DNA of 64,000 bases, taken from assembly GCA_964603585.1 (NCBI GenBank), contig CAZRVK010000001.1, forward strand, positions 207,856-271,855. The letters are read 5' to 3'. Below, one piece after another: positions 6,378 through 37,491 of the stretch. The translations under genes and the position numbers were made by a program. Numbering within the stretch: position 1 is the first letter of the stretch; each line of letters opens with the position of its first letter. The notes beneath the pieces were generated by a model that was given only the letters and a program-made list of their open reading frames with translations, did not search any database and was not told the origin of the DNA. The stretch comes from an uncultured Planctomycetales bacterium. GTDB taxonomy: Bacteria > Omnitrophota > Gorgyraeia > Gygaellales > Profunditerraquicolaceae.

Positions 6378-6399
6378 GTCTTTTTCTCGTCGGAAAGAA

Positions 6400-6432: not shown

Positions 6433-6435
6433 CTA

Positions 6436-6466: not shown

Positions 6467-6474
6467 TGCATTAC

Positions 6475-6873: not shown

Positions 6874-6874
6874 A

Positions 6875-7306: not shown

Positions 7307-7329
7307 AAGATGATAAATATACCATATTT

Positions 7330-11751: not shown

Positions 11752-12018
11752 TCATGATATTTCCTCGATCCATTTGATCGAGGATTTGTTTAAAATAATA
11801 AAATCTTTTCGTGCAATCACTCCAGTCGCCAGCTTAAATGACTGAATGTCTTCGGTATAAGAGAACTCCACCTTGGTTAAACCGATAAATGATTCCCGTG
11901 TATCATTGACAAAATCCAGCAACCTCTCACCTTCATTCAAGCAAACAAATCCTTTAACGGAAGTCCCATCCAGACAAATGATGCTAACCTTCTGCCTCTG
12001 TTTGCCCCCCTTATGCAC
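11752..12018 (-). CDS. hypothetical small protein (88 aa) inserted between leuD and leuB
   Basis: An ORF with coding-like composition that overlaps the leuD end by 8 bp. I recognise no motif in it. Confidence 0.35.
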   Translation of the reverse strand: MHKGGKQRQKVSIICLDGTSVKGFVCLNEGERLLDFVNDTRESFIGLTKVEFSYTEDIQSFKLATGVIARKDFIILNKSSIKWIEEIS

Positions 12019-12514
12019 GTGCCCTCCCTTTTTTATTCTGCCTGACCCAATTCATTAATCCTGATGCCGCAATAATCTCCCGAAGGAATTCAGGAAAGGC
12101 TGCCGTAGTATATGACTGTTTCTTCGTAAGATTACGGATAATACCGGTTGATAAATCTATCTCCAACAAATCCCCCTCGTCTATCATCTCCACGCCGGGC
12201 AACTCCAAAAACGGCAGGCCGATATTAATGGCGTTCCGAAAAAAGATCCCGGCAAAGCTTTCCGCGATAACCGCCCTTATCCCAGCGCCTTTTATCGCAA
12301 GCGGGGCATGCTCCCGGCTTGAACCACAACCGAAATTCTTGCCGGCGACTATAATATCCCCCTCTTTTACCTTGAGCGGAAATCCGGGAGCGATCGACTC
12401 CATGCAATGGCTCCCCAGTTCATTGGCATCGGTTGTGATCAAATACTTTGCCGCAATGATATCGTCCGTGTTGATATTCTGGCCAAACTTATGGACTTTG
12501 CCTTTAATGATCAT
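12011..12514 (-). CDS. leuD: 3-isopropylmalate dehydratase small subunit (short LeuD-type)
   Basis: 167 aa. Has GQNINTDDIIAAKYL and the LeuD/aconitase swivel-domain pattern. Confidence 0.85.
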   Translation of the reverse strand: MIIKGKVHKFGQNINTDDIIAAKYLITTDANELGSHCMESIAPGFPLKVKEGDIIVAGKNFGCGSSREHAPLAIKGAGIRAVIAESFAGIFFRNAINIGLPFLELPGVEMIDEGDLLEIDLSTGIIRNLTKKQSYTTAAFPEFLREIIAASGLMNWVRQNKKGRARA

Positions 12515-13116
12515 TTCGCCTTTTCCTCTGGCAGGACCTGGGCCGCTTCCGGGGACTTGATTATCTGCACACCGGCGGGCAATTCAAACAATTTGTCGTC
12601 AATAGGAGAATCTTTAATGAAATCCGTAAAATAAACCGCCATCCTTCCTTTGTCAGTATCCCCTTCGGATTTAAACGGGGAATTAGTGCTTTTATCAACC
12701 CAGAGGATAAAAGGAAGATTGTTCTGGGTATACTCATATACATCACAAACCTTGCCGTCAACGGTTTCCTCTCGAAGCGCTTTCAGCCCGGGGAGATTAT
12801 GATAATCCCTGAAGACCGATATCTGGTCATTTATATCTGACATAAGGATACTGACCGCATAATTAGGCTTAGGCATATACATATATGCCTCTACCCCATT
12901 GGAAAGAAAAATGGAGTTTTCCCCGGCCATGATCATCTCGATCCGGATCTTATTGCCTTTAATGAAGCATTTCGTCGCTCCGTCAGGATATCCTTGAGCA
13001 ACCGTCCGGGTCTGAAATTGCAAAGTAGAGGCATCCTGTGCCTGGGATACCGAAGAGAACAAAAAATTCACTGTTACCCAGGCGATGCAAATACCCAGTA
13101 AAACATTTTTTATCAT
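12511..13116 (-). CDS. exported hypothetical protein, possibly a LolA-like fold
   Basis: 201 aa. An N-terminal signal peptide (MIKNVLLGICIAWVTVNFLFSSVSQA) is present. The spacing of G, Y and D residues resembles LolA-like lipoprotein-carrier folds, but this is a weak call. Confidence 0.4.
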   Translation of the reverse strand: MIKNVLLGICIAWVTVNFLFSSVSQAQDASTLQFQTRTVAQGYPDGATKCFIKGNKIRIEMIMAGENSIFLSNGVEAYMYMPKPNYAVSILMSDINDQISVFRDYHNLPGLKALREETVDGKVCDVYEYTQNNLPFILWVDKSTNSPFKSEGDTDKGRMAVYFTDFIKDSPIDDKLFELPAGVQIIKSPEAAQVLPEEKAK

Positions 13117-13138: not shown

Positions 13139-14428
13139 TCAAAATAATTCTTCCGGATGCGTTATCCTGCCTGTGATACTGGATGCCGCAGCTACTGCAG
13201 GATTGGAAAGATACACCTCCGATTTAGGATGCCCCATTCTGCCGATAAAATTACGGTTAGTGGTCGCCAGACACCTTTCGAATTCAGTCAAAATACCGAT
13301 ATGTCCACCCAAGCAAGGGCCGCAAGTAGGAGTAGAAAAAATCCCTCCCGCACGGACAAAGATCTCCGCTAACCCTTCTTTAACCGCCTGAAGATATATC
13401 TTCTGTGTCGCCGGGATAACAATTAGGCGTACTCCAGGTTTTACTTTTTTTGACTTCAATATTCTTGCCGCGATCCTTAGGTCGGAAATCCTTCCATTGG
13501 TACATGAACCGATCACCACCTGGTCCAGGATAATCTCCTTTAAGGCACTCACCGGCTTTACATTGCTCGGCAGATGCGGACAAGCAACCAACGGCTCTAA
13601 TTGCGAAATATCCCATTCGTAGGTCTTTTCATACACAGCATCCTTATCACTTCGCAGTTTTCTAAAATCTATCTTCTTTGCGACCCTTTGATTTTGCGAG
13701 CGCGCAATTTCCCGGCAATATCCTTCAGTTATCGCATCCGGCGCAATCAACCCCGCCCGCGCACCTGCTTCAATCGCCATATTTGACATCGAGAATCTAT
13801 CGTCCATGGGAAGCTTATCGATAACCTCCCCTGAAAACTCCATCGCCCGGTATAATGCGCCATCCACCCCGATCTTACCGATAGTATATAAAATCAAGTC
13901 TTTGCCGCCAAACCATTTACTTAATTTACCGGTATAAATGAATTTGATATTTGCCGGAACCTTTAACCAGCATAGGCCGTCAATAAAGGCACGTGCCAGA
14001 TCCGTCGATCCAACCCCGGTCGCATACGCACCCAATGCCCCGTAAGTACAGGTATGCGAATCCGCGCCAATTACCAGGTCCCCCGGGCGGACCAGGCCTT
14101 TTTCCGGCAAGAGCGCATGTTCGATTCCCATACATCCAATCTCAAAATAATTTTTTATTTTCTGTTCTTTTGCAAAATCCTGCAGGATCTTGCACTGATT
14201 AGCGCTGCGCAGATCCTTGGCCGGGGCAAAATGATCCGGCACAAGAACTATCTTCTTATTATCAAAGACTTTAGCTGTCCCGGATTTCCTGAACTCCTCA
14301 ATAGCTAAAGGAGCGGTAATGTCATTGCCTAAGGCAATATCCACTTTGGCCTGGATAAACTCACCGGGCTTTATCTGTTTCCTGCCCGAATGATTCATTA
14401 GGATCTTCTCTGCTATTGTATAGCCCAT
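13139..14428 (-). CDS. leuC: 3-isopropylmalate dehydratase large subunit (aconitase family, short form)
   Basis: 429 aa. N-terminus MGYTIAEKILMNHSG. Fe-S cluster Cys motifs are present (SCTNGR, GPCLGG). Confidence 0.85.
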   Translation of the reverse strand: MGYTIAEKILMNHSGRKQIKPGEFIQAKVDIALGNDITAPLAIEEFRKSGTAKVFDNKKIVLVPDHFAPAKDLRSANQCKILQDFAKEQKIKNYFEIGCMGIEHALLPEKGLVRPGDLVIGADSHTCTYGALGAYATGVGSTDLARAFIDGLCWLKVPANIKFIYTGKLSKWFGGKDLILYTIGKIGVDGALYRAMEFSGEVIDKLPMDDRFSMSNMAIEAGARAGLIAPDAITEGYCREIARSQNQRVAKKIDFRKLRSDKDAVYEKTYEWDISQLEPLVACPHLPSNVKPVSALKEIILDQVVIGSCTNGRISDLRIAARILKSKKVKPGVRLIVIPATQKIYLQAVKEGLAEIFVRAGGIFSTPTCGPCLGGHIGILTEFERCLATTNRNFIGRMGHPKSEVYLSNPAVAAASSITGRITHPEELF

Positions 14429-25347: not shown

Positions 25348-26001
25348 TTAGTATTTGTATGAAATACCGATAACACCAAGATAGGTATTGATCCCGCTGT
25401 TAGGATGGTCAATTCCGGCATTGGAAAGATGCCGTAAACGAAATTCACTCACCAAAGATAAATTCGGCTTAAAGAAATAATGCGCGCCAACAGCTCCTGT
25501 TTCAATGAAATTGAACTGTGTTGACTGCTCCTGGGTGTGCTGGGTCATATAAACCATTCCCACGCCAGCCTTTACAAAAGGCTGGAACTTCCAGTTCTCC
25601 GGGACAAGACCTAACTTCAGGAAAAAAGAATTTCCAACTTCCATATTCGAAGAAGGGTCCCAGACATAGGCTAAATACGGTTCTATCTGTAAATTTACCA
25701 AGGAAGACGGGTTAAATCCGATTCTTTTAGTCAGGTTCTTCAGGTTAAAATCGAGGTCTACGATAAAAGGAACAAAACGGTAATCCGGCTTTTTATCAAA
25801 AACACTTTTTGCCTTCAGTTTATTCCAAGCAAAGCCGCTAAGCAATTCAATGCCGGTAAACGGCATTAAAGGCTCTTTTTCCAATGATGCTCCGGTTTCG
25901 ACGGCTGCCTGTCCATCCACTTGAGCAGCCCAGGAAGGATAAAGAAAGGCAAAAATAAAACATATTGTGATGAGGAGCAATCTGCAGGGTAGCTTTATCA
26001 T
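25348..26001 (-). CDS. outer-membrane beta-barrel protein, lipid A 3-O-deacylase (PagL)-like
   Basis: 217 aa. Has a signal peptide and alternating beta-strand pattern, and ends in an aromatic residue (...GISYKY). A candidate His/Ser catalytic dyad lies in HLSNAGIDHPNSG near the C-terminus, as in PagL-type deacylases. Confidence 0.4.
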   Translation of the reverse strand: MIKLPCRLLLITICFIFAFLYPSWAAQVDGQAAVETGASLEKEPLMPFTGIELLSGFAWNKLKAKSVFDKKPDYRFVPFIVDLDFNLKNLTKRIGFNPSSLVNLQIEPYLAYVWDPSSNMEVGNSFFLKLGLVPENWKFQPFVKAGVGMVYMTQHTQEQSTQFNFIETGAVGAHYFFKPNLSLVSEFRLRHLSNAGIDHPNSGINTYLGVIGISYKY

Positions 26002-26121
26002 AATGATTTAATTATATTTACAGTTTTACTCTTGTCAATATTTTTTTATAAAATTACCTGCATGCATGTAAATTGCATAACCCCAAACATGCAACAGATA
26101 AGCTAATTACAAATGTTTTTT

Positions 26122-27348
26122 CTATATACGCCGGCACATCCTAACGGCTTTTTCCATTTCATTCTCCGAAATAAAAATACTCGTGGATAAAGTTATATGC
26201 CGCTTTGCCAAATAAGAAGCAGAAGGTAATTCTTTCTCCTGGATCACCCCTTTTAAATAATCATAGCCATTAACCGCAGAAGTATAAATTTGGGAAACCC
26301 CAAGCCCGGAGTTCTCAAACAGTTGCAGGGCCCTCTTGCGTTTTTGCTGGTCATCGAAAACCAAAGTTAAATACGGATATACGGCCTTTGCCCCTGCCGG
26401 TTCTTTTATCACCGTAACACCCGGAGTATCCTTAAGCCTATATATATAATACTCCGCTTTTTTACGCTGAGCGATAATCTGGCGGTCGATCTGATGAAAA
26501 CCAAGGTGGCCGATCATGTTCCTTAAAGCAGAAACCTTATGTGTAGGGAAGTGTTCACTAAAATACTCGATATTCGCCCTAAGCTTATTCCCCTGCATCT
26601 GCCAAAAGATCTGCGGCAGGCGGAAAACAAACCAGAAAAAAACAGGGTTATAGACAAAGGCATACCCGAACAACTCCGCGACCTTAAGGCCTTCGGAAAA
26701 AATGTCTTTTTTTACAAGCTCCGCGACCTTGCGGTTAACCACTTCTGTATATTCCTTTTTATTTACGGCGATCAAGCCTCCCTCATATATCGTCAATCCC
26801 TTGCCCCGGCACAGGCTGAAAAAAGAAAAATCCCCTAAAGTCCCCACCTTAGCCTGCCGATAGCAGGCCCCTAAACTCTGGGCACAATCTTCGATAATAA
26901 ATATCCCGTTCAACCGGCAGATATGAGAGATCTCCTCGAAGACCAGCGGCACTCCAGCCAGGTGGACTGCTACCACCGCCAAGATATCTTTATTCGAAGA
27001 ACATATCCTTTCAAGATCCCCGGGATCAAAATTAAAGTCCCGGGGGTTTATATCGCAAACCTGGACTTTAAGCCCTGCCCGCTTAATCGCCAAAGGCAGC
27101 AACGGGCAAACAAAAGCTGGAATGACCACGGTTTTTCTTGCGGATAGTTCTTTTAAGCTTTCAAGGATCAAATAAAATGCCGCGCTTCCGGAATAAACCA
27201 GCCATGCAGAATCAACACCAAGGTAGCCTCGAAAATCACCCTCTAAAGAGCCATTCCGGCAAGCTTTCTTTAACCCCGAAAAGATATCTTTCCAGTAAAC
27301 TGGCAGTCCGGCAGTTGGAGGGATTTCTCTAAACAGACTCATTTGCAT
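26122..27348 (-). CDS. DegT/DnrJ/EryC1/StrS-family PLP-dependent aminotransferase
   Basis: 408 aa. Family blocks present (IIEDCAQSLGA..KVGTLGDFSFFSLCRGKGLTIYEGG) with a PLP-lysine region. Confidence 0.75.
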   Translation of the reverse strand: MQMSLFREIPPTAGLPVYWKDIFSGLKKACRNGSLEGDFRGYLGVDSAWLVYSGSAAFYLILESLKELSARKTVVIPAFVCPLLPLAIKRAGLKVQVCDINPRDFNFDPGDLERICSSNKDILAVVAVHLAGVPLVFEEISHICRLNGIFIIEDCAQSLGACYRQAKVGTLGDFSFFSLCRGKGLTIYEGGLIAVNKKEYTEVVNRKVAELVKKDIFSEGLKVAELFGYAFVYNPVFFWFVFRLPQIFWQMQGNKLRANIEYFSEHFPTHKVSALRNMIGHLGFHQIDRQIIAQRKKAEYYIYRLKDTPGVTVIKEPAGAKAVYPYLTLVFDDQQKRKRALQLFENSGLGVSQIYTSAVNGYDYLKGVIQEKELPSASYLAKRHITLSTSIFISENEMEKAVRMCRRI

Positions 27349-27444
27349 TATCCTTACGAATATTTTCCTGTTTTATATTTTATTTTATGATAAAATGCCT
27401 TACGAATCAAGAGTTCACAGTATCTCCGGGACATCTTAAAACAA

Positions 27445-27861
27445 ATGAAAACAAAAAAAGTAACATTAAAAATTCTGTCATTCTTAATACTCACCGACCT
27501 TTTAGAAACCTTAACCCAGTTTTGTTTTAAGAAAAGCGCCGACCTGCAAAGCGCATTTTATATAAATACAATTACTGATACTTACCAATTCCTCAAAGTA
27601 ATCTTTTCTTCCGGCTACCTTTGGGTCGGTTTTATTTCCGTGTTCTTGACCTTCAGCATATGGTCAACGATACTTTCGAAAATCGATCTAAGTGTCGCCG
27701 TCCCTATCGCCAGTTTCAGCTACATATTAGTGCCCTTGGTCTCGATTGTCTTCCTGCATGAACAGGTTTCAATCCTTGACTGGACAGGGATATTCTTCAT
27801 CCTAACTGGAGTAATATTTGTTTCTCTTAGCAGTGAAAAAACCGGAGCTGTAAGTAAATGA
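27445..27861 (+). CDS. small 4-TM membrane protein, DMT/EamA half-transporter (ArnE/ArnF-like)
   Basis: 138 aa with 4 predicted TM helices. Overlaps the next gene by 4 bp (ATGA), which suggests a heterodimeric pair. Confidence 0.5.
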   Translation: MKTKKVTLKILSFLILTDLLETLTQFCFKKSADLQSAFYINTITDTYQFLKVIFSSGYLWVGFISVFLTFSIWSTILSKIDLSVAVPIASFSYILVPLVSIVFLHEQVSILDWTGIFFILTGVIFVSLSSEKTGAVSK

Positions 27862-28247
27862 AAAACAGCGCACTCTTTATAGTATCTCTTATCATCCTGG
27901 CTTCACTTTTTGATACCATCAATCAACTGTTCCTTAAAACCACCATAAACTCACTAGACTTAAATATAAACGGTTTTAAAAAAGCTGTCGGGTTCGTATT
28001 GAAACTGCTTACCAGGCCAAGGATCTGGGTCGGTTTCTTCTTCTGCTGTCTGTCCCTGGTAGTCTGGCTATTCGTGCTTTCAAAGGCCGACTTGAATTTC
28101 GCATTCTCGGTTGACAGTATGCATTATATTTTTATTGCTATCGCCTCAAAATTCATTTTAAAGGAAAAGGTTGGCTTTAAACGGTGGGTCGGAACCGCCT
28201 TTATTGTTTTAGGGATTATCTTACTAACTTTTAGCAACAGTAATTAA
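27858..28247 (+). CDS. small 4-TM membrane protein, DMT/EamA half-transporter (ArnE/ArnF-like partner)
   Basis: 129 aa with 4 predicted TM helices. Translationally coupled to the preceding gene. Confidence 0.5.
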   Translation: MKNSALFIVSLIILASLFDTINQLFLKTTINSLDLNINGFKKAVGFVLKLLTRPRIWVGFFFCCLSLVVWLFVLSKADLNFAFSVDSMHYIFIAIASKFILKEKVGFKRWVGTAFIVLGIILLTFSNSN

Positions 28248-28249
28248 TC

Positions 28250-29755
28250 CTATTTCAAATACCTAAGGACTAAATTAGCCGCATTGATCCCGGAAATAAA
28301 ACATCCGTGCACACCCCCTCCCGGAACAGTCCAGGCACCCGCTAAAAACAACCCGTTAACCGGAGTCTTCTGGGGCAGGCGGTTTATGCTTGACTCCGAG
28401 ACAGTTTGAGCGAACCCATAAATCGCCCCGTCATCAGACAAGGTGTATCTTTGCATGGTTTTTGGGGTCGCCGCATCCATTACCTCGATATTTTTAGATA
28501 ACCCAGGAAGATATTGTTCGGCACGCCGTATCAATTTATCGGCGACCTTAGCTTTTTTCTGCTGATACTCTTGGCGGCTTAAATTGCTCCAATGCGCGAA
28601 ACTATCGAAGGTAATGATCAGTAAACTGCCTTTTCCGTAAGGGACAATGCTGGGATCCACCTGGGCATGATCAGTTAAGATCAATGAACAACGGTCATAA
28701 TCGCCTAAAAGGCAATAATTAAAGTTTTCATCGTGGCTGTAAGAGGTACTGATCGATAACAACCCGTGGTCCATGCCTAAATCCTTTGCCGGTACCTTAA
28801 GCCCTAAATATACCTGAAATGCAGAAATTGACTTTTCCTTAACAGCCAAGCGATGGGCATACTTATCCTTGAGGTCCGCATGATCCAGTAACTGCGTCAT
28901 GGTCTGGATCGCAGAAGCGTTAGAAATTACGGCTTTGGCCTCAAATTCCTGGCCATCAACCGCCAGCACGGATAAGGAATATTTATTATGGGGGATTATT
29001 TTCTTGACCAAGGTGTTGAATCTTACCTGTGAGCCGTTTTCTTTTATTTTATCTGATATCGCACGAAAAAGCTGCAGAAATCCGCCCCGGACATAAGCGG
29101 TAGGATTATAAAAATAACCCCTAAAAACAATAAAGAAATAAAATGCCGAGAGTTTACTTGGCGCCAACCCCATAAACCTCCAGATATCACCAATGATGCC
29201 TTTGAGCCTTTGATCGCCGATATATTTATCCAGCACTCCAGATGCGGAGCCAGAGGACATACTGATAATAGCCGGATATAAAAAAGGGGCAAGAAGCAAA
29301 TTAATCAATTCCGGTAATTTCGAGTTATTGAACCGGTCAAATTGCTGATAAAACCCATCCAGATCAGAAAAAAGCTTCTCGATCCCGTTTTTTTCATGGG
29401 GGAAATTATTCTGTAAGAAAGCGATTAAATGCTCCCTGCTAAAATCCGCGGTAAAATCATGGTCCGGATAAATGATCCTGGCAAAATCTTTAAGCGGAAT
29501 GAATTCCACTTTTCTATCGACACCATATTCCTCAAGGAATTGCCGTATCTCTCCCTGGGGAGCAAGCGCATTCACACAATGTATGGCAGACTCGAAAATA
29601 AACCCTTTACGAAGAAAGGTTGTAGCATATCCTCCAGGAACAGGCTGTCTTTCCAAGACCAGGATTTTCTTGCCGGAAGCAGATAGTTTTAAAGCCGAAA
29701 CTAACCCCGCAACCCCGGCACCAATAATGATCGCATCATAACGCATGATCGTCAC
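28250..29755 (-). CDS. FAD-dependent oxidoreductase, phytoene desaturase (CrtI)-like / amine-oxidase fold
   Basis: 501 aa. The N-terminal dinucleotide-binding motif YDAIIIGAGVAGLVSALKL...LVLERQPVPGGY is present. Length and C-terminal GGGVHG fit CrtI-type enzymes. Confidence 0.7.
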   Translation of the reverse strand: MTIMRYDAIIIGAGVAGLVSALKLSASGKKILVLERQPVPGGYATTFLRKGFIFESAIHCVNALAPQGEIRQFLEEYGVDRKVEFIPLKDFARIIYPDHDFTADFSREHLIAFLQNNFPHEKNGIEKLFSDLDGFYQQFDRFNNSKLPELINLLLAPFLYPAIISMSSGSASGVLDKYIGDQRLKGIIGDIWRFMGLAPSKLSAFYFFIVFRGYFYNPTAYVRGGFLQLFRAISDKIKENGSQVRFNTLVKKIIPHNKYSLSVLAVDGQEFEAKAVISNASAIQTMTQLLDHADLKDKYAHRLAVKEKSISAFQVYLGLKVPAKDLGMDHGLLSISTSYSHDENFNYCLLGDYDRCSLILTDHAQVDPSIVPYGKGSLLIITFDSFAHWSNLSRQEYQQKKAKVADKLIRRAEQYLPGLSKNIEVMDAATPKTMQRYTLSDDGAIYGFAQTVSESSINRLPQKTPVNGLFLAGAWTVPGGGVHGCFISGINAANLVLRYLK

Positions 29756-29762
29756 CGTACAA

Positions 29763-30599
29763 TTATATGCTGTTTAGAAAAGCAATGAACTCCTGGGCAA
29801 CCCGGTCTTTTTCCTTATCAATAGTTATCATATGGTAACTATCTTCAATAACTATCAGGGATTTATTCATAGATCCAATATGATTAAGGACAAACTCGGC
29901 ATTTTTAAGACTGGTCATATCATCTTCTTTGGCGTGAATTATCAGGATAGGGGTTTGCACGCTCTTTAACTCTTTTTTTACGGTTTTAGTAAAAAGATGG
30001 TGCTGGTAAAGGCAGCTCATCGGGAAAAAAGGGCTTCCGAACAATAAAACCTTGTTGCTGAATTTCTTGGCACTGGCATCCTTATAAAACCTCTCAATGT
30101 TCCATCGCAACTCTTCATCTTTTAAACCATACGGCCAGCCTTCCCGGATATCCAGGCGGTTACGAATGAAAGGTATATGCCAGACCAGGTTCATTAAGGC
30201 CTTGCCTTTATGCAAAGCCCAGCCATCATAATATATAGTGGGCGCCAAAGCCACTATCCCGGATATCTGGTCCGGGAACTTATAGGCCAGGTGTATGCTC
30301 ATCAAAGCACCCAAAGACAACCCCCCGACATAAACCCGCAGATGATCTTTTTTTAAAAAATGCAGATCATCGGAGCAGGCCGAGGCAATCTCCTGCCAGG
30401 TAACCTTTTTCAACTCCCCTAAAGTCCCGCAGTGGCGCGGCAATGCATTGCAGAATACCGTATACCCTGCCTGATTCAGTTTCTTACCCAGATAACGCAT
30501 TTCCGAAGGAGTCCCGGTGATCCCGTGGATCAAAAGCACTGCCTTGCCATTATCGCCCTTAAGCAAGAAATTAAATTTCTTAGAATTATTAATAGTCAT
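29763..30599 (-). CDS. alpha/beta-fold hydrolase (esterase/thioesterase/acyltransferase type)
   Basis: The nucleophile elbow is GLSLG. An HG oxyanion region (LLIHGITG) is present. I moved the start to ATG 30597-30599 (MTINNSKK), because the longer track ORF would overlap the divergent gene and its promoter. Confidence 0.7.
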   Translation of the reverse strand: MTINNSKKFNFLLKGDNGKAVLLIHGITGTPSEMRYLGKKLNQAGYTVFCNALPRHCGTLGELKKVTWQEIASACSDDLHFLKKDHLRVYVGGLSLGALMSIHLAYKFPDQISGIVALAPTIYYDGWALHKGKALMNLVWHIPFIRNRLDIREGWPYGLKDEELRWNIERFYKDASAKKFSNKVLLFGSPFFPMSCLYQHHLFTKTVKKELKSVQTPILIIHAKEDDMTSLKNAEFVLNHIGSMNKSLIVIEDSYHMITIDKEKDRVAQEFIAFLNSI

Positions 30600-30655
30600 A
30601 ATGTGGGTTATTATATCATAAAATCCATTGATGTGAATTAATATTGCAGCCTTTC

Positions 30656-30683
30656 CTGACAGATAAAATACCGTATATATAAT
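30656..30683 (+). promoter_or_regulatory. candidate sigma70 promoter of the DUF482-like gene (cTGACA-N16-TATAAT)
   Basis: Plus strand: cctgacagataaaataccgtataTATAATtg. It lies 35 nt upstream of ATG 30719, in the divergent intergenic region. Confidence 0.3.
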
Positions 30684-30718
30684 TGCATTTATCCTGTTTT
30701 TTGCTATACTTCTAATCC

Positions 30719-31849
30719 ATGGCCGATAAAAACAGTTTAACATTTAAGATCAAGCACACCATTAACGACATCCCTGAATCTGCCTGGAGGGACCTTTTTG
30801 ATAAAGGCATAGTAGAAAATTACGGTTATCATAAGACCCTCGAGGAATCCGGGCTGAAAGAATTCTCATTCGCATACCTCACGGCAGAACGCGCAAATAA
30901 GCTTTGTGCGATCGTGCCATTTTTTATCATGGATTTCTCATTCGATACCCTGCTGCCAGATCACTTTAAAAAAATCGCCAAAAGGCTCAAACCATACATC
31001 AAAATGAAAGTGCTTTTTTTAGGCGCCCCGACAACCGAAGAATTTTATTTCGGGCTTTCTTCTGAAGAAAACATAGAGCCGTTCTTTAACCAGGCCATTC
31101 AGGAACTCCATTCGTTCTGCAAGGAAAAGAATGTCTGCGGACTGAATTTTTACAACATCTCCGATAAAAATGCCGCCTTACGCCGGTATTTACAAAAGAA
31201 CGGGTTCATTGAGATGGAAAGCCTGCCCACAACAATGATCGAGATAAAAGCCTCCTCCCTGGATGATTATATCCGCGGCCTAAGCAAAAATATGCAAAAA
31301 GACATCCGCCGGAAGATAAACCGATCACAAAGCCAAGTCCAGCTTACTACCGAAACACGTGATAATATAGACGATATCAGCCAGGAGATATACCGTTTAT
31401 ATTTAAACAATTTCTCTGATTCCGAAGTACGTTTTGAGGTTTTAACCGAGGATTTCTTTCGCAGGATTTGCCGCAATATGCCGAATGAGGCCAAATATTT
31501 TATAACTTACGCCGGAACAAAAATCGTGGCATTCAACTTGTTCATGGCAAAAGACGGCCTTTTTATAGACAAATTCATCGGTTTCGATGAAGAAACCCGT
31601 ATAAAATATCATTTATACTTCACCACCTTCTGCCACAATATCGATTGGTGTATAAAAAACGGCTGTAATTTTTACCAACCGGGAACCACTGACTACCACC
31701 CTAAGCTAAGGCTGGGGGCAAAACTGATCCCCCTTTATAACCAGGCAAAAGGATTCAACCCGCTCTTGCACAATTTTCTAAAATTAATCTCAAGATTTAT
31801 CCAACCGATCAATCTTGACCCATCATTGAAAGAACTTAGAAAACCTTAA
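30719..31849 (+). CDS. GNAT-fold acyltransferase, DUF482/FemAB-like (PEP-CTERM-associated type) family
   Basis: 376 aa. The N-terminal pattern INDIPESAWRDLFDKG...YHKTLEESGL...KLCAIVPFFIMD resembles the FemAB-like/BioF2-like N-acyltransferase family. Overall length and the twin-GNAT architecture fit. Confidence 0.5.
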   Translation: MADKNSLTFKIKHTINDIPESAWRDLFDKGIVENYGYHKTLEESGLKEFSFAYLTAERANKLCAIVPFFIMDFSFDTLLPDHFKKIAKRLKPYIKMKVLFLGAPTTEEFYFGLSSEENIEPFFNQAIQELHSFCKEKNVCGLNFYNISDKNAALRRYLQKNGFIEMESLPTTMIEIKASSLDDYIRGLSKNMQKDIRRKINRSQSQVQLTTETRDNIDDISQEIYRLYLNNFSDSEVRFEVLTEDFFRRICRNMPNEAKYFITYAGTKIVAFNLFMAKDGLFIDKFIGFDEETRIKYHLYFTTFCHNIDWCIKNGCNFYQPGTTDYHPKLRLGAKLIPLYNQAKGFNPLLHNFLKLISRFIQPINLDPSLKELRKP

Positions 31850-33063
31850 AGGAAAGAAGCCTTCTTCATTACCAAACTGGCATTATTACCGCCAAAGGCT
31901 GAAGCGTTATTGAGGGCAATATCGACCTTCATTTGCCTGGCAACATTAGGCACACAATCGATATCGCATTCCGGATCGGGAGTTTGGTAATTAATCGTAG
32001 GAGGGACAATATCGTTTTGGAGTGCCAAAGCGCAAGTGATCGCTTCGATCGCGGAAGCAGCACCCATCGTATGCCCAAGCATGGATTTAATAGAACTCAC
32101 TGCAACCTTACCTTGGATACCCGCAAAAACCGCCTTAATTGCGGCGGATTCGACTTTATCATTAACGGGAGTGCCGGTGCCATGGGCACTGACATAATCC
32201 ACATCTTCTGCCTTGACATTAGCCTGCTTTAACGCATTCCGCATGGACCGGGCAACACCATCAGCTTCTGGTGCAGTCATATGATACGCATCACAGCTTA
32301 AGCCGTACCCGAGGACTTCCGCATAGATCACCGCCTTGCGGTTTAAGGCATTCTCCATACTCTCTAAAACCACAATACCTGCGCCTTCTCCTACCATCAT
32401 CCCTTTGCGGTTCTTATCAAAAGGCTGGCATTTAACCGGCGCTACCGCCAAAAGCCGGTTAAATCCGGTAAAAGCAAGGCGGGAAAAAGCATCCACCCCT
32501 CCGGCAAGCATCATCTCTGCCTGCCCCATGCGGATCAAGTCACAGGCGTATCCGATCGCATAATTCCCCGCAGCACAGGCAGTAGGGATCACCAAATTCG
32601 GACCACTTATCCCTAACTCATTGGCGACATTAAAAGCCAGGACATTTGCCGGATACTGGAAAATAAGCTCCGGGTTTATCGCATTCACTCCCCCTTTTAT
32701 CCAGGAAGAATTAATCACTTCTAAAACTTGAGACTCCCCCATTGTCGTTCCTAAAATCACTCCGGTTTCCCGGTGATCCATGGAAACTGCCTTTAATCCG
32801 GCATCCTTTAACGCCAATTTGGCAGAAGCAATCGCCAGGCATGAAGTCCGGCCCAGATTAGCTATTTTATTCTTTGCAATAAATAATGCCGGATCAAAAT
32901 CCTTAACCTCACCGCCGTTATGCGTTGGATAATTTGAAGTATCAAAAGAGGTGATCTCCGAGATCCCGGAAACACCTTTTAAGAGGGCCGGCCAAAAAGC
33001 ATCCCTGCCAATACCAATCGAAGATATGACTCCTATACCCGTGATTACGATACGCTTATTCAT
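31846..33063 (-). CDS. 3-oxoacyl-ACP synthase (FabF/KS type, catalytically complete)
   Basis: 405 aa. Has the Cys block PTACAAGNYAIG and the His motifs AHGTGTPVND and GHTMGAAS. This is a second KS, distinct from the housekeeping fabF. Confidence 0.85.
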   Translation of the reverse strand: MNKRIVITGIGVISSIGIGRDAFWPALLKGVSGISEITSFDTSNYPTHNGGEVKDFDPALFIAKNKIANLGRTSCLAIASAKLALKDAGLKAVSMDHRETGVILGTTMGESQVLEVINSSWIKGGVNAINPELIFQYPANVLAFNVANELGISGPNLVIPTACAAGNYAIGYACDLIRMGQAEMMLAGGVDAFSRLAFTGFNRLLAVAPVKCQPFDKNRKGMMVGEGAGIVVLESMENALNRKAVIYAEVLGYGLSCDAYHMTAPEADGVARSMRNALKQANVKAEDVDYVSAHGTGTPVNDKVESAAIKAVFAGIQGKVAVSSIKSMLGHTMGAASAIEAITCALALQNDIVPPTINYQTPDPECDIDCVPNVARQMKVDIALNNASAFGGNNASLVMKKASFL

Positions 33064-33068
33064 AAATT

Positions 33069-33527
33069 TTACAATCCCTGGCCATCCATTACATCCTCTT
33101 TAGCACTTAAGGATATCTCTGCCTTGGCGACATCACGGTCTGCAACCTGGGCAAGCGCCTCAACTATCGCCACACCAGACAACATCTTCACCGGAGTTAC
33201 CGTAATTTTAAGCTGATCACCGGGTAAAACCGGGCTCAAATACCTGACCTTAGCTGCACCCAAATAATAAGACATCTTCTTTTGCCCTAAAGCAACGGAT
33301 TTTGCGGAATAAAAAAGCACGATCGCCGCTTGTGCCATTGCCTCCAGGATCAAAACCCCCGGCATCACCGGCTTATCCGGGAAATGTCCGGCAAAGAACT
33401 GCTCGTTCATACTGACATTTTTCACCGCCACGACTTTTTTGGCGGGATCTATCTCCACCACCCGATCGATCATCAAAAAAGGGAACCGTTGAGGCAGGAT
33501 CCTTTGGATTTCCTCGATATTAAGCAT
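33069..33527 (-). CDS. fabZ: 3-hydroxyacyl-ACP dehydratase
   Basis: 152 aa. Has the FabZ hot-dog motifs FFAGHFPDKPVMPGVLILEAMAQ. Confidence 0.85.
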   Translation of the reverse strand: MLNIEEIQRILPQRFPFLMIDRVVEIDPAKKVVAVKNVSMNEQFFAGHFPDKPVMPGVLILEAMAQAAIVLFYSAKSVALGQKKMSYYLGAAKVRYLSPVLPGDQLKITVTPVKMLSGVAIVEALAQVADRDVAKAEISLSAKEDVMDGQGL

Positions 33528-33777
33528 TACTTGCTCCTTTACTATCTAAAAACTGCCTGGCTACCGCCACAGTCTCTTTTAATGTAGTAAGCTGCGCAAG
33601 TTTATCCTCGGGGATCGCGATCTTATATTTTTTCTCTATCGCCGCCATGATCTCTAAGGCCATCATCGAATCAACCCCCAGATCCTCAAAGAACCTGGCA
33701 TCAGGCGTAACCTCTGCCGGAGTTTTTTCAATGATCTCTGCGATGATCCCTCTTATCTCTTCCTCGATATTTTGCAT
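33520..33777 (-). CDS. acyl carrier protein (second copy)
   Basis: 85 aa. The phosphopantetheine motif DLGVDSMMALEI is present. Confidence 0.85.
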   Translation of the reverse strand: MQNIEEEIRGIIAEIIEKTPAEVTPDARFFEDLGVDSMMALEIMAAIEKKYKIAIPEDKLAQLTTLKETVAVARQFLDSKGASNA

Positions 33778-33787
33778 ACATACCCTC

Positions 33788-34534
33788 CTATTTTATTCCA
33801 AGCCCGCCGTCTATGATAATTGTCTGTCCCGTAATATACCCGGAAGCGTCATCAAGCAGGAATTTTACCGCAAAAGCAACATCCTCGGCCTGGCCAAACC
33901 TGCCAAAAGGAATATTTTCTTTAATCACTGTTTTATATTTATCATTCAAAGCAGCCACCATGTCAGTTTCAATAAAACCCGGCGCGACCGCATTCACCCG
34001 GATATTATAAGGCCCCACTTCCTTTGCCAATGATTTGGTAAAACCGATCATTCCGGATTTAGAAGCAGCATAATTGCTTTGGCGCGACATCCCCACCACC
34101 CCGCTCACAGAAGAAATATTTACGATACTTCCTTTTTTCTGTTTGAGAAAAGTCACAATGGCATTACGGGTGACATTGAACATCCCTCCAAGATTAGTAT
34201 CGATCACCTCCTGCCAATCATCTTTGGTCATCATCATTAGCGCTTTATCCCTGGTAATACCAGCGTTATTGACTAAAATATCCAGCCTCCCAAAATTCTC
34301 CAGGGTCTTGCCTACCAACTCCTTCGATTTCTCAAAATCACGGGCATCCATCTGTAATGCCAGATATTTACCCCCTAAAGCCTTGATCTCATCTCCAAGG
34401 TCATTCGCCTGGCTTGTACTCTTTAAATAAGTAAAAACGATATTAGCGCCCTCTCTGGCTAACATTAAGATGATCGCTTTGCCAATACCTCTGGTGCCGC
34501 CGGTAACTATCGCTGTCTTCTGCTCAAATAACAT
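33788..34534 (-). CDS. 3-oxoacyl-ACP reductase (SDR, FabG-like; second copy)
   Basis: 248 aa. Has TAIVTGGTRGIGKAI, NNAGI, and the YAASKSG catalytic motif. Confidence 0.85.
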   Translation of the reverse strand: MLFEQKTAIVTGGTRGIGKAIILMLAREGANIVFTYLKSTSQANDLGDEIKALGGKYLALQMDARDFEKSKELVGKTLENFGRLDILVNNAGITRDKALMMMTKDDWQEVIDTNLGGMFNVTRNAIVTFLKQKKGSIVNISSVSGVVGMSRQSNYAASKSGMIGFTKSLAKEVGPYNIRVNAVAPGFIETDMVAALNDKYKTVIKENIPFGRFGQAEDVAFAVKFLLDDASGYITGQTIIIDGGLGIK

Positions 34535-34536
34535 AT

Positions 34537-35772
34537 TTATCCCCGGAATTTAGAAAATACAGCACTGGCAGTGCGCGCCTGTGATGCACAGCTGTTAACC
34601 AGGACATTGTTCACCTCGCATTCAAGCGTTTTACCCGTAACAAAATTAAGCCCGCATTCTGGATCCGCCTCTGCATAATTAGCCATCGCCGGCACACCCT
34701 GGCGGGTTAAAGCCAACACAGCCTCGATACTCTGCAAAACCCCCCCGGCACTATAAGATTCGCCCACAATGGATTTAAGCGCCGTTACCGGTGGTAGTTC
34801 TCCAACAGAAGAAAAAACGTTTTTTATGGAAATGGCTTCGATCTTATCGGCGTAAACTGTAGAATTGGCGGCAGCAGAGATATAACCGATCTGATCCAGG
34901 CCGATTGCGGATTCTCGGGATGCCATCTGCATTGACTGGGTCAAACCTGCTTGGCCAAAACCCCAGCCAAAACCAGAAACTTCCGCATAGATATTTGCCC
35001 CGCGGTCAACCGCAGATCCCAGTTCTTCCAATACCAATATCCCGGCACCTTCAGATAAAACAATACCATTCCTTCTTTTATCGAATGGACAGCTCAACTC
35101 CACACTCCCCAAGGACGTGCCAGCTAAAAATCCGGTTTTATAAAAACCCAAATAGATCTGCTCGCACAACTCCTCCACTGCCCCAGCCAGGATAAATTTC
35201 GCCCGGCCTAAACGCAAAAAATCATAAGCATATTTTAATGCATCCAGGGAAGCAGAGAATCCGGTCGAGATCGTGGTATTTAGCCCTTTAATGTTGAATC
35301 TAAGTGAAACCTGGCTCGCCGGGGAGTTGATCACCGTGTTAGGAAAAAGAGCGGGATTAACATACTGCGGGCCATCTATCACGGCATCCCGGTCAAAATT
35401 ACTGATACTGCTGACACTGCCCAGGGTATTACCCACAACTACCCCAGCCTCACAGGTATTACTGTCATCCATTATGACCTTTGCGTCATCCAAGGCCAAT
35501 TTGGTCGCGCATAAAAGCAGCTTTGTGCTTCGGTCAAGCGTCCTAAGCCCTTTTGCGCCTAAGATCGCTTCCGGAGCAAAACCCCCTATCTCTCCTGCTG
35601 TTTTTGCGCTAAATCCAGCGGTATCAAACAAAGAAACCGGTTTTATCCCGGAAATAGAATTAAAAACAGCCTGCATAAAGGCATCTTTTCCGACAGCATT
35701 AGAGGCAACTACCCCCAAACCGGTAACAACCACTCTTTTTCTCATGAATTTCCCCTTAGAACTGACATTCAA
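34537..35772 (-). CDS. ketosynthase-like protein lacking the Cys-His-His catalytic triad (chain-length-factor-like partner)
   Basis: It has the KS fold throughout. At the position of the active-site Cys it reads ISTGFSAS, against ATACASG in FabF. At the first His it reads AAANSTV, against AHGTST. At the second His it reads GESYSAGG, against GHLLGAAG. The likely true start is ATG 35743-35745 (MRKRVVVTGLG), with an AAGGGG RBS upstream. Confidence 0.7.
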   Translation of the reverse strand: MNVSSKGKFMRKRVVVTGLGVVASNAVGKDAFMQAVFNSISGIKPVSLFDTAGFSAKTAGEIGGFAPEAILGAKGLRTLDRSTKLLLCATKLALDDAKVIMDDSNTCEAGVVVGNTLGSVSSISNFDRDAVIDGPQYVNPALFPNTVINSPASQVSLRFNIKGLNTTISTGFSASLDALKYAYDFLRLGRAKFILAGAVEELCEQIYLGFYKTGFLAGTSLGSVELSCPFDKRRNGIVLSEGAGILVLEELGSAVDRGANIYAEVSGFGWGFGQAGLTQSMQMASRESAIGLDQIGYISAAANSTVYADKIEAISIKNVFSSVGELPPVTALKSIVGESYSAGGVLQSIEAVLALTRQGVPAMANYAEADPECGLNFVTGKTLECEVNNVLVNSCASQARTASAVFSKFRG

Positions 35773-35787
35773 TCAGGCAATTTGAAT
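35767..35787. promoter_or_regulatory. palindromic candidate operator ATTCAA-N9-TTGAAT at the upstream end of the KS operon
   Basis: A perfect 6-bp inverted repeat lies immediately downstream of the predicted -10 and around the predicted transcription start. Confidence 0.3.
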
Positions 35788-35791
35788 TTAT

Positions 35792-35820
35792 ATTATATCT
35801 CTCTTAAAACTTTATCTCAA
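35792..35820 (-). promoter_or_regulatory. candidate sigma70 promoter (TTGAGA-N17-TATAAT) for the CLF-KR-ACP-DH-KS operon
   Basis: Minus-strand reading: cTTGAGAtaaagttttaagagagaTATAATat. It lies in the 121-bp gap upstream of the CLF-like gene. Confidence 0.4.
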
Positions 35821-35893
35821 GGATTCTTTTTATATGACGCAACCGTTATTTACAATACCAGAACTATCATCCCGGAAGAAAACATATTCAATA

Positions 35894-36832
35894 TCACATG
35901 AGCGCCTCGGCTATCCGGATATTCGTCTGTCCGTTCGTTGCATCAATCTGCCTGTCATCAACATCTTTTGCGCTATACTCTTTCGGATGATCAAGGGTTG
36001 AACAAATCGATTTAAACCTGCCGTGTATCTTTATCCGGGAATACTCCCCGGTAACATCTAATCCAACGATATCCGTATTCTCCTTGAAAAATTTCAGGAT
36101 AAAAAGCAGCTCATCCAGGGAAAAACGGCCTTCCTCCCAGTTGGTCAAGGCATACTTACGGGTCAGACAATCCTTATCAATACTGATATATACCTTATCG
36201 GTGGCAAAGCGCCCTATCATAGAAGACAGGAATTTTCCCATCTCCCTGCCTTTAAGTTCCTGCCAGGATATTTCATTATAATACCAGCTTTTTTTTAATC
36301 CAATAGACAGATTTTGCGGCACATCCCTGAATATTACCCTGGCAGGTTTATGCGAATATGGATAAATCTCCAGCCGGTTATTCCTCATAGCAGCCAAATT
36401 CCCGCTTTCCAAATGCAAAGTCGAAATATCATCAGAGGCTACACCGAATAAAACCACTTTCTCAATGTTTTGTGAGCGTAACGCCCGGCTAACCCAGGAA
36501 CCACATCCGGTTTTCGGAGGCAAGGTATCCCAATCAGGGTGATTATCAAAAACAATCAGGTTTAGAGGCTGACTGAACTGCTCTAAGAGGATGCTGGAGA
36601 TATGATGGAAGTCACCGGACCCAAAGAAAGTTATCCGGTTCTTATCGGAAAAGGCCAGCGCCTGCTTTATCTGGATCTCGGCGTTTTTATCCAGCCAGAA
36701 CCGGCAATCAAGCCCTATTTTCAGCAAATCAACTACTTCGGGATTGAAACGCCTGATAAAATCATCCTGCCTTAAAAGGCTGTTATCAAAATTGAGTATG
36801 CGGATTTGACCGGGAAGTAATCGATTCATCAA
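35894..36832 (-). CDS. arginase/agmatinase/formiminoglutamase-fold (ureohydrolase superfamily) protein, substrate unknown
   Basis: 312 aa. Counterparts of the arginase metal-binding motifs appear in the canonical order. GSGDFHHIS stands for GGDHS, FDNHPD for DAHAD, SIDKDCL for SxDxDxLDP, and GLDVTGEYS for DVVE. Confidence 0.45.
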   Translation of the reverse strand: MMNRLLPGQIRILNFDNSLLRQDDFIRRFNPEVVDLLKIGLDCRFWLDKNAEIQIKQALAFSDKNRITFFGSGDFHHISSILLEQFSQPLNLIVFDNHPDWDTLPPKTGCGSWVSRALRSQNIEKVVLFGVASDDISTLHLESGNLAAMRNNRLEIYPYSHKPARVIFRDVPQNLSIGLKKSWYYNEISWQELKGREMGKFLSSMIGRFATDKVYISIDKDCLTRKYALTNWEEGRFSLDELLFILKFFKENTDIVGLDVTGEYSRIKIHGRFKSICSTLDHPKEYSAKDVDDRQIDATNGQTNIRIAEALM

Positions 36833-37491
36833 ACCATTCTTCTTAAACCAGCATAGACGCTTTTTAAATCCCTGAACGGGATACAGCCGCGCCTTATCTT
36901 TTTAAAATATTCCAACAGATCATCCTTGGCAAAAACAATATCTGCCTGCTGGGCAGGGCAAATATCAGAACGGCCGTCTCCGATATAAATGATCCTCTCC
37001 TTAAACCTGTTTCTTAATAAATTGTTCCTCTTGCAATGAGCACAATAAGAACAAGCGCGGTTATGATGCGGAAAATAAAGCAATAATCTGTTTTTGGAGA
37101 ATTTCAGCCGGTTAGAACAAACCTTTATGCCGCAAATATCATTTTGGCGTAGGATGACATTGATAATAAAAGAAAAATTATCGCTTAATATCTTGACCGG
37201 GATATTCTTTGATTTAAGTAAAACAAGTATTTTCTTGAAATAAGGGTCGATCTTTATGCCGGACAAATAGCGCAATAAATCTGTCTTGGATAAACGCACG
37301 CCTGCTAATTGCCCTCTAAGGCAGGCCCGGGAGCCAATAACCCCCTTTTTCCACTGTCTTTCAAGTTCAACCCATTTCTTATCTATCGAGAAACGTTTAA
37401 TGATATCATCCAAAACATCAACCTTTGTGATCGTATTGTCAAAATCAAAGAAAACTGCATGTCCAGATAAGAAATTCATATATTCCGCCAT
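36829..37491 (-). CDS. HAD-superfamily phosphatase (MtnX/phosphoserine-phosphatase-like subfamily) with an inserted Cys cluster
   Basis: 220 aa. Motif I is FFDFDNTIT (DxDxT). A C-terminal GDGRSD motif is present. There is an unusual CSYCAHC segment. Confidence 0.55.
   Translation of the reverse strand: MAEYMNFLSGHAVFFDFDNTITKVDVLDDIIKRFSIDKKWVELERQWKKGVIGSRACLRGQLAGVRLSKTDLLRYLSGIKIDPYFKKILVLLKSKNIPVKILSDNFSFIINVILRQNDICGIKVCSNRLKFSKNRLLLYFPHHNRACSYCAHCKRNNLLRNRFKERIIYIGDGRSDICPAQQADIVFAKDDLLEYFKKIRRGCIPFRDLKSVYAGLRRMV

Follow-up and report, generated by a model that had tools for sequence, protein, structure and literature searches.

We analysed a stretch of 64,000 nucleotides (nt) from an uncultured bacterium of the phylum Omnitrophota (GenBank assembly GCA_964603585.1, contig CAZRVK010000001.1, forward-strand positions 207,856 to 271,855), here called the window, in which the gene for a DegT-family aminotransferase diverges from two small genes encoding EamA-family half-transporters. 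Judged by homology and gene order, these three genes are the core of an undescribed conserved module of about eight genes. The reading that we prefer, and to which we give an even chance, is that the module builds and flips an amine-bearing amphiphile, working like the Arn or MprF systems while being a member of neither. Searches of the literature on PF04339, COG3146, Omnitrophota lipid A and flippases, and ArnE/F homologues with aminotransferases yielded no description of such a module.

The core genes and the spacer between them are:

26122–27348, minus strand: DegT-family pyridoxal phosphate (PLP) aminotransferase, 408 amino acids (aa), Pfam PF01041, deep-branching, with an aromatic-rich insertion at about residues 206–265
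27349–27444, no strand: divergent spacer of 96 base pairs (bp) between the DegT gene and the EamA pair
27445–27861, plus strand: EamA half-transporter 1, 138 aa, Pfam EamA, four transmembrane (TM) segments, predicted N-in, distant ArnE homologue
27858–28247, plus strand: EamA half-transporter 2, 129 aa, four TM segments, predicted opposite topology, overlapping half 1 by 4 nt

The core genes and their conservation

An earlier note on this DNA had placed three open reading frames (ORFs) at these positions and proposed that the two transporter halves are translationally coupled. The ORFs and the sequence bear this out: the start codon of half 2 lies within the stop codon of half 1, in an ATGA at 27858–27861 (AAATGAAAA), and elsewhere, too, the two EamA genes are most often joined by a 4-nt overlap (22 of 43 loci). 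A public protein identical to the window aminotransferase has 406 aa and starts two codons later.

The comparison drew on 80 loci gathered from species-representative genomes by family alignment, with further loci added through exact-protein look-ups. Synteny is counted over 61 family loci, in which all ORFs within 9 kb of the DegT gene were clustered; the counts are lower bounds, given the tblastn thresholds, the crude ORF calling and several loci cut by contig ends. Homologues at 44–60% identity occur in dozens of genomes, and the DegT/EamA/EamA adjacency is kept in 49 of the 61 loci despite different flanks, so that chance ORFs can be excluded. Candidatus Omnitrophota is the label of almost all nearest relatives of the window aminotransferase and of the GNAT protein described below. 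More distant DegT relatives (24–32% identity; L065–L085) were discarded; with the exception of L063, their surroundings are of the ordinary polysaccharide type, contain several DegT paralogues and lack the module.

The DegT gene is divergent from a GNAT–EamA or EamA operon in 43 loci, across a spacer of about 70–80 bp. One minus-strand promoter-like match (27410–27382) lies within the window spacer. An RNA element in the spacer, such as a guanidine riboswitch, was considered because an SMR-like pair occurs together with a ureohydrolase; it was rejected, as Rfam gave no match at gathering score in the window and nothing meaningful at E ≤ 1 in 25900–28300.

The EamA pair

Both small proteins have four hydrophobic segments and exceed the Pfam EamA gathering cut-off of 28.2 bits (34.6 bits for half 1, 31.7 for half 2). 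The best curated matches of both are ArnE and ArnF, with every score below half of its cut-off: half 1 scored 35.8 bits against ArnE (cut-off 92) and 33.4 against ArnF (cut-off 99), and half 2 scored 45.2 and 39.6 bits, respectively. Among the SMR-type curated models, the sole match was that of half 1 alone to MdtI (19 bits, cut-off 103), and PDB sequence-profile searches with the halves returned nothing useful. When profiles were compared with hhalign, E. coli ArnE was matched at 96.6% (half 1) and 96.4% probability (half 2) over about 100 columns at 28–31% identity, whereas the match to ArnF was weak for both halves (62–68%). The two halves matched each other at 99.5% probability and 31% identity, as expected for paralogues. 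By these comparisons, both halves are true but distant homologues of ArnE. Since both are closer to ArnE and to each other than to ArnF, the pair arose by a separate duplication of its own, and the halves are not one-to-one orthologues of ArnE and ArnF. The family calls of the earlier note, a DegT aminotransferase and small ArnE/F-like DMT halves, are thus right, and the possibility that the small proteins are generic EamA transporters unrelated to ArnE/F was not borne out.

The lysine/arginine (K/R) bias, computed with the four TM segments delimited by hand, was 0 to +4 for half 1 (14 sequences) and −4 to −8 for half 2 (15 sequences). Opposite bias in adjacent genes is a signature of antiparallel SMR heterodimers, and the same review places ArnE/F within the SMR family (PMC9574504). 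Because of the opposite bias of the halves, we predict that they form an antiparallel heterodimer. TM1 contains invariant acids, D18 and E21 in half 1 and D19 in half 2, at positions where ArnE carries serines in the alignment. Both genes are retained even in operons that carry them at opposite ends. With paired SMR transporters such as MdtJI and EbrAB, it shares adjacent overlapping genes, opposite K/R bias and membrane-embedded carboxylates (PMC9574504), but the halves match Pfam EamA rather than Multi_Drug_Res and have a longer TM1–TM2 loop.

The DegT aminotransferase

The aminotransferase matched Pfam DegT_DnrJ_EryC1 (PF01041) at 144 bits against a gathering cut-off of 19.8. The PLP-binding lysine K183, which marks an aminotransferase as opposed to the dehydratases with their His, and D154, the Asp paired with the pyridine nitrogen, are invariant in 18 family members and align with the lysine region of ArnB, and the motif E153-D154-C-A-Q157 is likewise invariant in 18 relatives. 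Subfamily was judged from scores against curated equivalog models together with PDB and fold rankings. The protein reached none of the NCBIfam equivalog cut-offs, scoring 110 bits against PseC (cut-off 424), 96 against LegC (420), 74 against dTDP-4-amino-4,6-dideoxygalactose transaminase (375) and 55.6 against ArnB (631); it does not, then, fall in a defined sugar-nucleotide aminotransferase clade, a placement that would have weakened the earlier note's reading. In a PDB sequence search, only residues 34–206, approximately, could be aligned; the best match reached 73 bits, and ArnB, with 34 bits, ranked close to last. On these rankings, the window protein is a deep-branching family member outside every curated subfamily.

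An AlphaFold (AF2) model, with a predicted local distance difference test score (pLDDT) of 82, showed the standard fold plus low-confidence helices at residues 216–259. This segment consists of 28% F/W/Y, compared to 12% for the whole protein, which holds across the family, and E. coli ArnB (21% identity by hhalign) lacks about 30 of its residues. The model matched dozens of DegT structures. The best match was Fic25, a DegT-family enzyme whose crystal structure contains a non-nucleotide substrate derived from an amino acid, followed by ordinary sugar aminotransferases; deoxy-scyllo-inosose aminotransferases were also among the best.

Composition and spread of the module

Clustering of the 61 family loci returned the DegT gene in 57, the EamA pair in 49, a HAD-IB phosphatase in 47, a class-III aminotransferase of about 471 aa in 44, an arginase-fold protein in 41, an alpha/beta hydrolase in 37, a FemAB-like GNAT protein in 32 and a PagL-like barrel in 16. 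In the usual layout, GNAT, EamA1 and EamA2 form one operon, read in that order and divergent from a second operon of DegT and hydrolase; a third group, read in the order HAD, aminotransferase and arginase-like, runs towards the second, and the flanks vary by locus. The conserved synteny strongly backs the functional link that the earlier note had drawn between the aminotransferase and the transporter pair, and suggests that they work together. The interval 25348–37491 of the window holds every one of these genes except the class-III aminotransferase. As the EamA halves and the GNAT gene form one operon in relatives, the hydrolase gene and a CrtI-family gene were apparently inserted between them in the window lineage.

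Besides Omnitrophota, the module is carried by Nitrospirota/Thermodesulfovibrionales, by one metagenome-assembled genome (MAG) labelled Thermodesulfobacteriota and by one Obscuribacterales genome. It forms one operon, with the EamA genes at opposite ends, in the Nitrospirota/Thermodesulfovibrionales MAGs, and a single operon in the Obscuribacterales genome. Between the latter (L063 4317–5840) and Omnitrophota, the class-III aminotransferase is 64% identical, compared to 35% for DegT and 28% for the GNAT protein, which suggests either a tightly constrained small-molecule substrate or a separate transfer history for the class-III enzyme. It is closest to GABA-aminotransferase-like enzymes. The class-III enzyme found in the window (1918–3111) was rejected as a module member: it is ArgD, lies in the arg operon and is 30% identical to the 471-aa paralogue.

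Two-component systems adjoin the module in four loci of non-Omnitrophota lineages (L036 3992–5350; L063 2051–4134; L087 12692–15215; L088 1236–3774), and their position beside the module hints at stress-regulated expression. The Obscuribacterales system (L063) is an OmpR-type pair with a 2CSK_N sensor, while the Nitrospirota version has a HisKA kinase and a sigma-54 activator. Genes for a radical-SAM protein (about 337 aa) and a ThiI/NFACT-R_2 protein (about 331 aa) follow the HAD gene in 22–24 of the 61 loci (e.g., L001 14253–16258); neither was detected in the window, and they may be neighbours of shared ancestry or part of the module.

The partner proteins

The earlier note had overlooked the partners of the three core genes, all of which are encoded in the window: a FemX/MprF-like GNAT protein, an esterase, a HAD phosphatase and an arginase-fold protein. 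With the PagL-like barrel, the partner genes are:

25348–26001, minus strand: PagL-like outer-membrane beta-barrel, accessory member (Pfam PagL, 61 bits; signal-peptide-like N-terminus)
29763–30743, minus strand: alpha/beta hydrolase related to monoacylglycerol lipases and carboxylesterases, core member (Pfam Hydrolase_4, 75 bits)
30719–31849, plus strand: FemAB-like tandem-GNAT transferase (COG3146), core member (Pfam FemAB_like, 67.5 bits; Acetyltransf_6, 50 bits)
35894–36832, minus strand: divergent arginase-fold (ureohydrolase-like) protein, core member (Pfam Arginase, 36 bits, cut-off 22)
36829–37491, minus strand: HAD-IB phosphatase, MtnX/phosphoserine-phosphatase-like, core member (NCBIfam TIGR01489, 116.5 bits, cut-off 81.6)

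The GNAT protein was modelled by AF2 with a pLDDT of 88.7. Its top Foldseek matches were FemX, Sbb17/Sba18, L-PGS, A-PGS and MprF synthase domains (E about 1e-10 to 1e-11, TM-scores 0.5–0.59), of which Sbb17/Sba18 are aminoacyl-tRNA-dependent peptide synthases. The acyl-CoA-dependent tandem GNATs VipF and the clavulanate-pathway enzyme share the fold and appear in the same list. The CoA-pyrophosphate motif [QR]xxGx[GA] was absent from 19 of 20 members and present in one. A PDB sequence-profile search with the protein found nothing useful, and NCBIfam searches revealed no curated model for the GNAT, arginase-like or aminotransferase members. The idea that COG3146/PF13480 proteins make peptide bonds from aminoacyl-tRNA has been put forward, untested, in the argolaphos paper (PMC8976061).

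These matches invite comparison with two groups of known systems. Like MprF systems, the module combines a Fem/MprF-type tandem-GNAT fold, a dedicated translocator and a lipid esterase, and in some lineages it lies beside a two-component system; aminoacyl-phosphatidylglycerol hydrolases are encoded next to mprF. It differs in that its GNAT protein belongs to Pfam FemAB_like rather than DUF2156/LPG_synthase_C, its translocator is an EamA heterodimer rather than the N-terminal domain of MprF, and its two aminotransferases, phosphatase and ureohydrolase have no MprF counterpart. FemX and the streptothricin-type Sbb17/Sba18 are the best structural matches of the GNAT protein, and there too an amine made by an aminotransferase is then aminoacylated. 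However, their sequences are only about 10% identical to the module protein, whose use of tRNA is putative, and the enzymes characterised so far modify peptidoglycan precursors or soluble antibiotics.

The hydrolase has an intact nucleophile elbow, GLSLG (GxSxG), and the closest solved structures to one family member are bacterial monoacylglycerol lipases, LipS and Est30. The listed ORF is about 40 residues longer than its relatives and overlaps the start of the divergent GNAT gene by 25 nt; since family members have about 287 aa, the real start is probably an internal Met about 48 codons downstream. An aminolipid could be assembled by a GNAT-type N-acyltransferase and an alpha/beta-fold enzyme that handles acyl groups, as in the ornithine-lipid and acyloxyacyl aminolipid pathways (OlsBA, OlsF, and the planctomycete GH3-like protein with OlsI), and OlsI is a precedent for an alpha/beta-fold O-acyltransferase (PMC12493201). 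However, no Ols model is matched by the module (OlsI at E = 0.0024, 17 bits against a cut-off of 385), and neither an aminotransferase nor a phosphatase, a ureohydrolase or a dedicated flippase takes part in the Ols pathways.

In the arginase-fold protein, the metal-ligand motifs G73-D74-x-H76, D96-x-H98-x-D100 and S217-x-D219-x-D221 were invariant in 17 sequences. It fell in no defined subfamily, scoring 16–27 bits against agmatinase models with cut-offs of 174–302 and matching PDB profiles only at E ≥ 2e-4. The HAD protein retains motif I (DFDNT), and its closest structures are phosphoserine phosphatases. A signal peptide is present in the PagL-like protein and in none of the module enzymes. 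Homologues of the PagL-like gene adjoin the DegT gene in all 16 loci counted above; in the window, a perfect 12/12 match to the sigma-70 consensus (TTGACA-16-TATAAT; 26038–26011, minus strand), as a consensus match only, lies just upstream of it. In a Thermodesulfovibrionales module (L036 9038–9979, plus strand), a DUF2860 protein (188 bits), which we take to be an outer-membrane barrel, is encoded between the hydrolase and DegT genes and may replace the PagL-like barrel there.

Relation to the Arn system

The earlier note likened the arrangement to the aminoarabinose lipid-modification toolkit, a comparison that stands at the level of how the system works but fails as pathway membership. As in Arn (PmrHFIJKLM), a DegT aminotransferase is encoded beside a pair of four-TM, DMT/SMR-like proteins of about 110–140 residues homologous to ArnE, and the likely logic of an amine-bearing amphiphile made inside and flipped out is the same. 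E. coli Arn proteins were searched by tblastn against the window and all loci, and the window was scanned with Pfam. As had been noted, homologues of ArnA, ArnC and ArnD are missing from the window; ArnA and ArnD are absent from all 61 loci as well, and the sole ArnC-like match in a family locus was weak (L038). The DegT enzyme is no closer to ArnB than to other DegT enzymes and is not its orthologue, the transporter pair is self-duplicated with TM1 Asp/Glu in place of the ArnE Ser, and five other conserved partner enzymes belong to the module.

A GT-C protein at 7330–8901 had also been called ArnT/PMT-like. We rejected it as ArnT: neither PMT nor PMT_2 was matched at E ≤ 1, nor was any PDB sequence, the protein resembles neither E. 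coli ArnT nor the ArnT-like genes in L008 and L048, and it is never syntenic with the module. The gene (minus strand, between rplM–rpsI and truA) encodes a 523-aa polytopic membrane protein with a weak DUF6541 match (31 bits).

A true Arn-like pathway would nonetheless account for part of the evidence. In it, the DegT enzyme would make an amino sugar linked to a nucleoside diphosphate (NDP), an unlinked glycosyltransferase would load it onto polyprenyl phosphate, the EamA pair would flip it, and a GT-C enzyme encoded elsewhere in the genome would attach it to lipid A. It draws on the closeness of both halves to ArnE/ArnF among curated families (hhalign to ArnE, 96%), on the use of NDP-keto-sugars by most characterised DegT enzymes, and on the PagL-like, lipid-A-type enzyme that adjoins the module in 16 loci. 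Moreover, the HAD gene of L048 is immediately preceded, on its own strand, by an ArnT-like PMT/PMT_2 GT-C gene and a polysaccharide deacetylase gene (the Pfam family of ArnD), and an ArnT-like GT-C gene abuts the module acyl carrier protein gene in L008 (18462–20102). The L048 insertion (5045–7438, minus strand) is located between the HAD gene and the radical-SAM/ThiI-like pair; its GT-C gene is apparently split into ORFs of 362 and 188 aa and has overlapping ends with the Polysacc_deac_1 gene. Occurrence in only two of 61 loci is close to what chance would give for so common a family, but it keeps this explanation alive. Set against it are the absence of ArnA and ArnD, the weak ArnC-like match, the lack of a keto-sugar-making enzyme in the module, the DegT score of 56 bits compared to the 631-bit ArnB cut-off, the separate duplication of the halves, the five conserved partners without Arn counterpart, and the window GT-C protein being unrelated to ArnT. 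We consider such an Arn-like pathway, in which the GNAT protein and the esterase would provide transient N-protection and deprotection like the ArnA formyltransferase domain and ArnD, unlikely.

Acyl-chain genes and the rest of the window

Between the module genes, the window carries a set of acyl-chain genes:

28250–29755, minus strand: CrtI/amine-oxidase-family flavoprotein, lineage-specific (Pfam Amino_oxidase, 105 bits; NCBIfam crtI_fam, 196 bits, cut-off 238)
31846–33063, minus strand: FabF-type ketosynthase (KS), Cys-His-His intact in the alignment (NCBIfam fabF, 441 bits, cut-off 494)
33069–33527, minus strand: FabZ-type dehydratase (NCBIfam fabZ, 163 bits, cut-off 155)
33520–33777, minus strand: acyl carrier protein (ACP), 85 aa, with a DSM motif (ORF and sequence)
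33788–34534, minus strand: FabG-type ketoreductase (NCBIfam 3oxo_ACP_reduc, 309 bits, cut-off 298)
34537–35772, minus strand: chain-length-factor (CLF)-like KS paralogue, 32% identical to the KS and without the Cys-His-His triad

In the CLF-like protein, Phe stands in place of the catalytic Cys, and Ala and Glu in place of the two His. The ACP gene is easily missed in length-filtered ORF lists because it is overlapped by a longer, spurious plus-strand ORF (33647–34033). The set (28250–35772) has no enoyl reductase, and its product may be an unusual unsaturated or hydroxylated chain. Sub-threshold NCBIfam resemblance to the cispentacin proteins AmcF and AmcE was seen in the same region.

The earlier note had suggested that the module may act on a lipid from this KS cluster, and this is partly right. 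In favour of an acyl link, ACP and KS are embedded in other lineages too: an ACP accompanies a KS inside the module in L008, L015, L031, L043, L060, L088 and the window, and the Nitrospirota operon (L088) has a separate ACP–KS pair directly upstream of the hydrolase and DegT genes. A dedicated acyl-chain supply has hence joined the module on more than one occasion. The particular block found in the window, by contrast, recurs in few loci; KS/CLF–FabG–ACP–FabZ–CrtI lies inside the module in three others (L006, L015 and L050), which are also the only three of the 61 loci with the CrtI-family gene. That the trio merely tailors the product of this block is very improbable: some 50 loci keep the three core genes and their five partners without the block, which marks it as an add-on rather than the reason for the module.

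The rest of the window consists of housekeeping genes (arg, leu, fatty-acid synthesis, lgt/lspA/ileS and the dcw cluster). Nearly all genes are on the minus strand, the EamA halves and the FemAB-like GNAT gene being the only clear plus-strand genes, and GC skew is negative in every 2-kb bin. A 201-aa ORF (12511–13116, minus strand) with faint LolA-like/DUF4412 matches lies between genes for the large (13139–14428) and small (12011–12514) aconitase-family subunits, probably leuC and leuD.

Proposed function

The observations comprise the identities and homologies of the genes, their conserved synteny, and the topology bias, catalytic motifs and fold relationships of their products; from homology, fold and gene order we infer the substrate, the order of steps, the GNAT donor, and the direction and cargo of transport. 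In the pathway that we propose, the enzymes, having no signal peptides, would act in the cytoplasm or at the inner membrane face. The DegT enzyme, held at the membrane by its aromatic insertion, would act on an amphiphilic precursor and replace one of its keto groups by a primary amine. Because dedicated ACP and KS genes are embedded in the module in several lineages, the likeliest precursor would be acyl-derived (a beta-keto-acyl or ACP-borne chain), and we consider an acyl-anchored version more likely than one based on a polyprenyl-phosphate sugar. The tandem GNAT would then acylate or aminoacylate an amine or hydroxyl, most likely from aminoacyl-tRNA, and the esterase would trim or release an ester or thioester. 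The phosphatase, class-III aminotransferase and ureohydrolase would make or tailor a polar, nitrogen-rich part. The EamA halves, as an antiparallel ArnE-like heterodimer with TM1 carboxylates binding the cationic head group, would shift the product to the periplasmic leaflet, where the product itself, or outer-membrane or GT-C enzymes acting with it, may alter envelope charge.

A more specific form of this pathway would be a new class of cationic lipid, in which a membrane-docked DegT enzyme transaminates a beta-keto-acyl or other keto lipid, the GNAT protein uses aminoacyl-tRNA to aminoacylate the amine, for example with arginine, the arginase-fold protein makes the arginyl group ornithyl, and the ArnE-like heterodimer flips the product to the cell surface. 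Conversion on the lipid was considered because, to our knowledge, no tRNA for ornithine exists. We regard this form as quite unlikely; if true, it would provide the first DegT enzyme acting on a lipid chain and, alongside Arn and MprF, a third and independent way of giving the envelope a positive charge, one characteristic of Omnitrophota.

Several points weigh against an amine-bearing amphiphile. No product, substrate or activity is on record for any module member, and all carriers are uncultured: a search for a cultured host with a Nitrospirota homologue matched only MAG or metagenome proteins. We know of no DegT-family enzyme that aminates an acyl chain. Embedded ACP/KS genes are found in only about eight of the 61 loci; in the majority that lack them, the acyl link would need housekeeping fatty-acid synthesis. 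The GNAT donor cannot be read from a fold shared at TM-scores of about 0.57–0.59, and the Joint Genome Institute (JGI) name for the family is "predicted N-acyltransferase". EamA/DMT proteins are mostly small-molecule transporters, and the TM1 carboxylates would suit a soluble cation equally well. The class-III aminotransferase is missing from the window, and the reading assigns it, the phosphatase and the ureohydrolase no detailed role.

There is a serious rival, albeit one that we consider doubtful: the product may be a soluble, nitrogen-rich metabolite (such as an amino sugar, amino polyol, aminocyclitol or polyamine-like compound), possibly aminoacylated, built by the two aminotransferases, the phosphatase, the ureohydrolase and a tRNA-dependent GNAT, with the EamA pair a plain exporter like MdtJI or other paired SMR cation exporters. 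A DegT enzyme with a HAD phosphatase recalls kanosamine synthesis by NtdA and NtdB. Fic25 and deoxy-scyllo-inosose aminotransferases are among the best DegT matches, and Sbb17/Sba18 aminoacylate the amine of a soluble amino sugar. The class-III aminotransferase is similar to GABA and omega-amino-acid transaminases, as is the arginase-fold protein to agmatinases. COG3146-type GNATs are found in the argolaphos natural-product cluster (PMC8976061), and membrane-embedded carboxylates are typical of cation-exporting SMRs (PMC9574504). A soluble product fits less well with the ACP and KS embedded in the operon in several lineages, with a lipase-like esterase and an aromatic, hydrophobic DegT insertion, and with outer-membrane barrels as recurrent neighbours. 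In addition, among curated families the transporter is nearest to the lipid-flipping ArnE/F and not to Gdx, Qac or MdtJI, and retention throughout the Omnitrophota is more in keeping with a core function in the envelope than with a secondary metabolite.

Significance

A DegT gene beside ArnE/F-like genes does not indicate an aminoarabinose pathway, and the mis-annotation to which this arrangement leads can now be corrected. The gene set of the module is compact enough for expression in E. coli. If an amine-bearing lipid is made and flipped, the module would represent a new route to surface-charge control and cationic-peptide resistance, and it would add to the chemistry on record for three families, the DegT aminotransferases, the Fem/MprF-type transferases and the ArnE-like flippases. 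The abundant Omnitrophota are for the most part uncultured and in many cases dependent on a host, and next to nothing is known about the chemistry of their envelope. As most of the phylum retains the module, which some Nitrospirota and a Melainabacterium also carry, it is a strong candidate for a core envelope trait.

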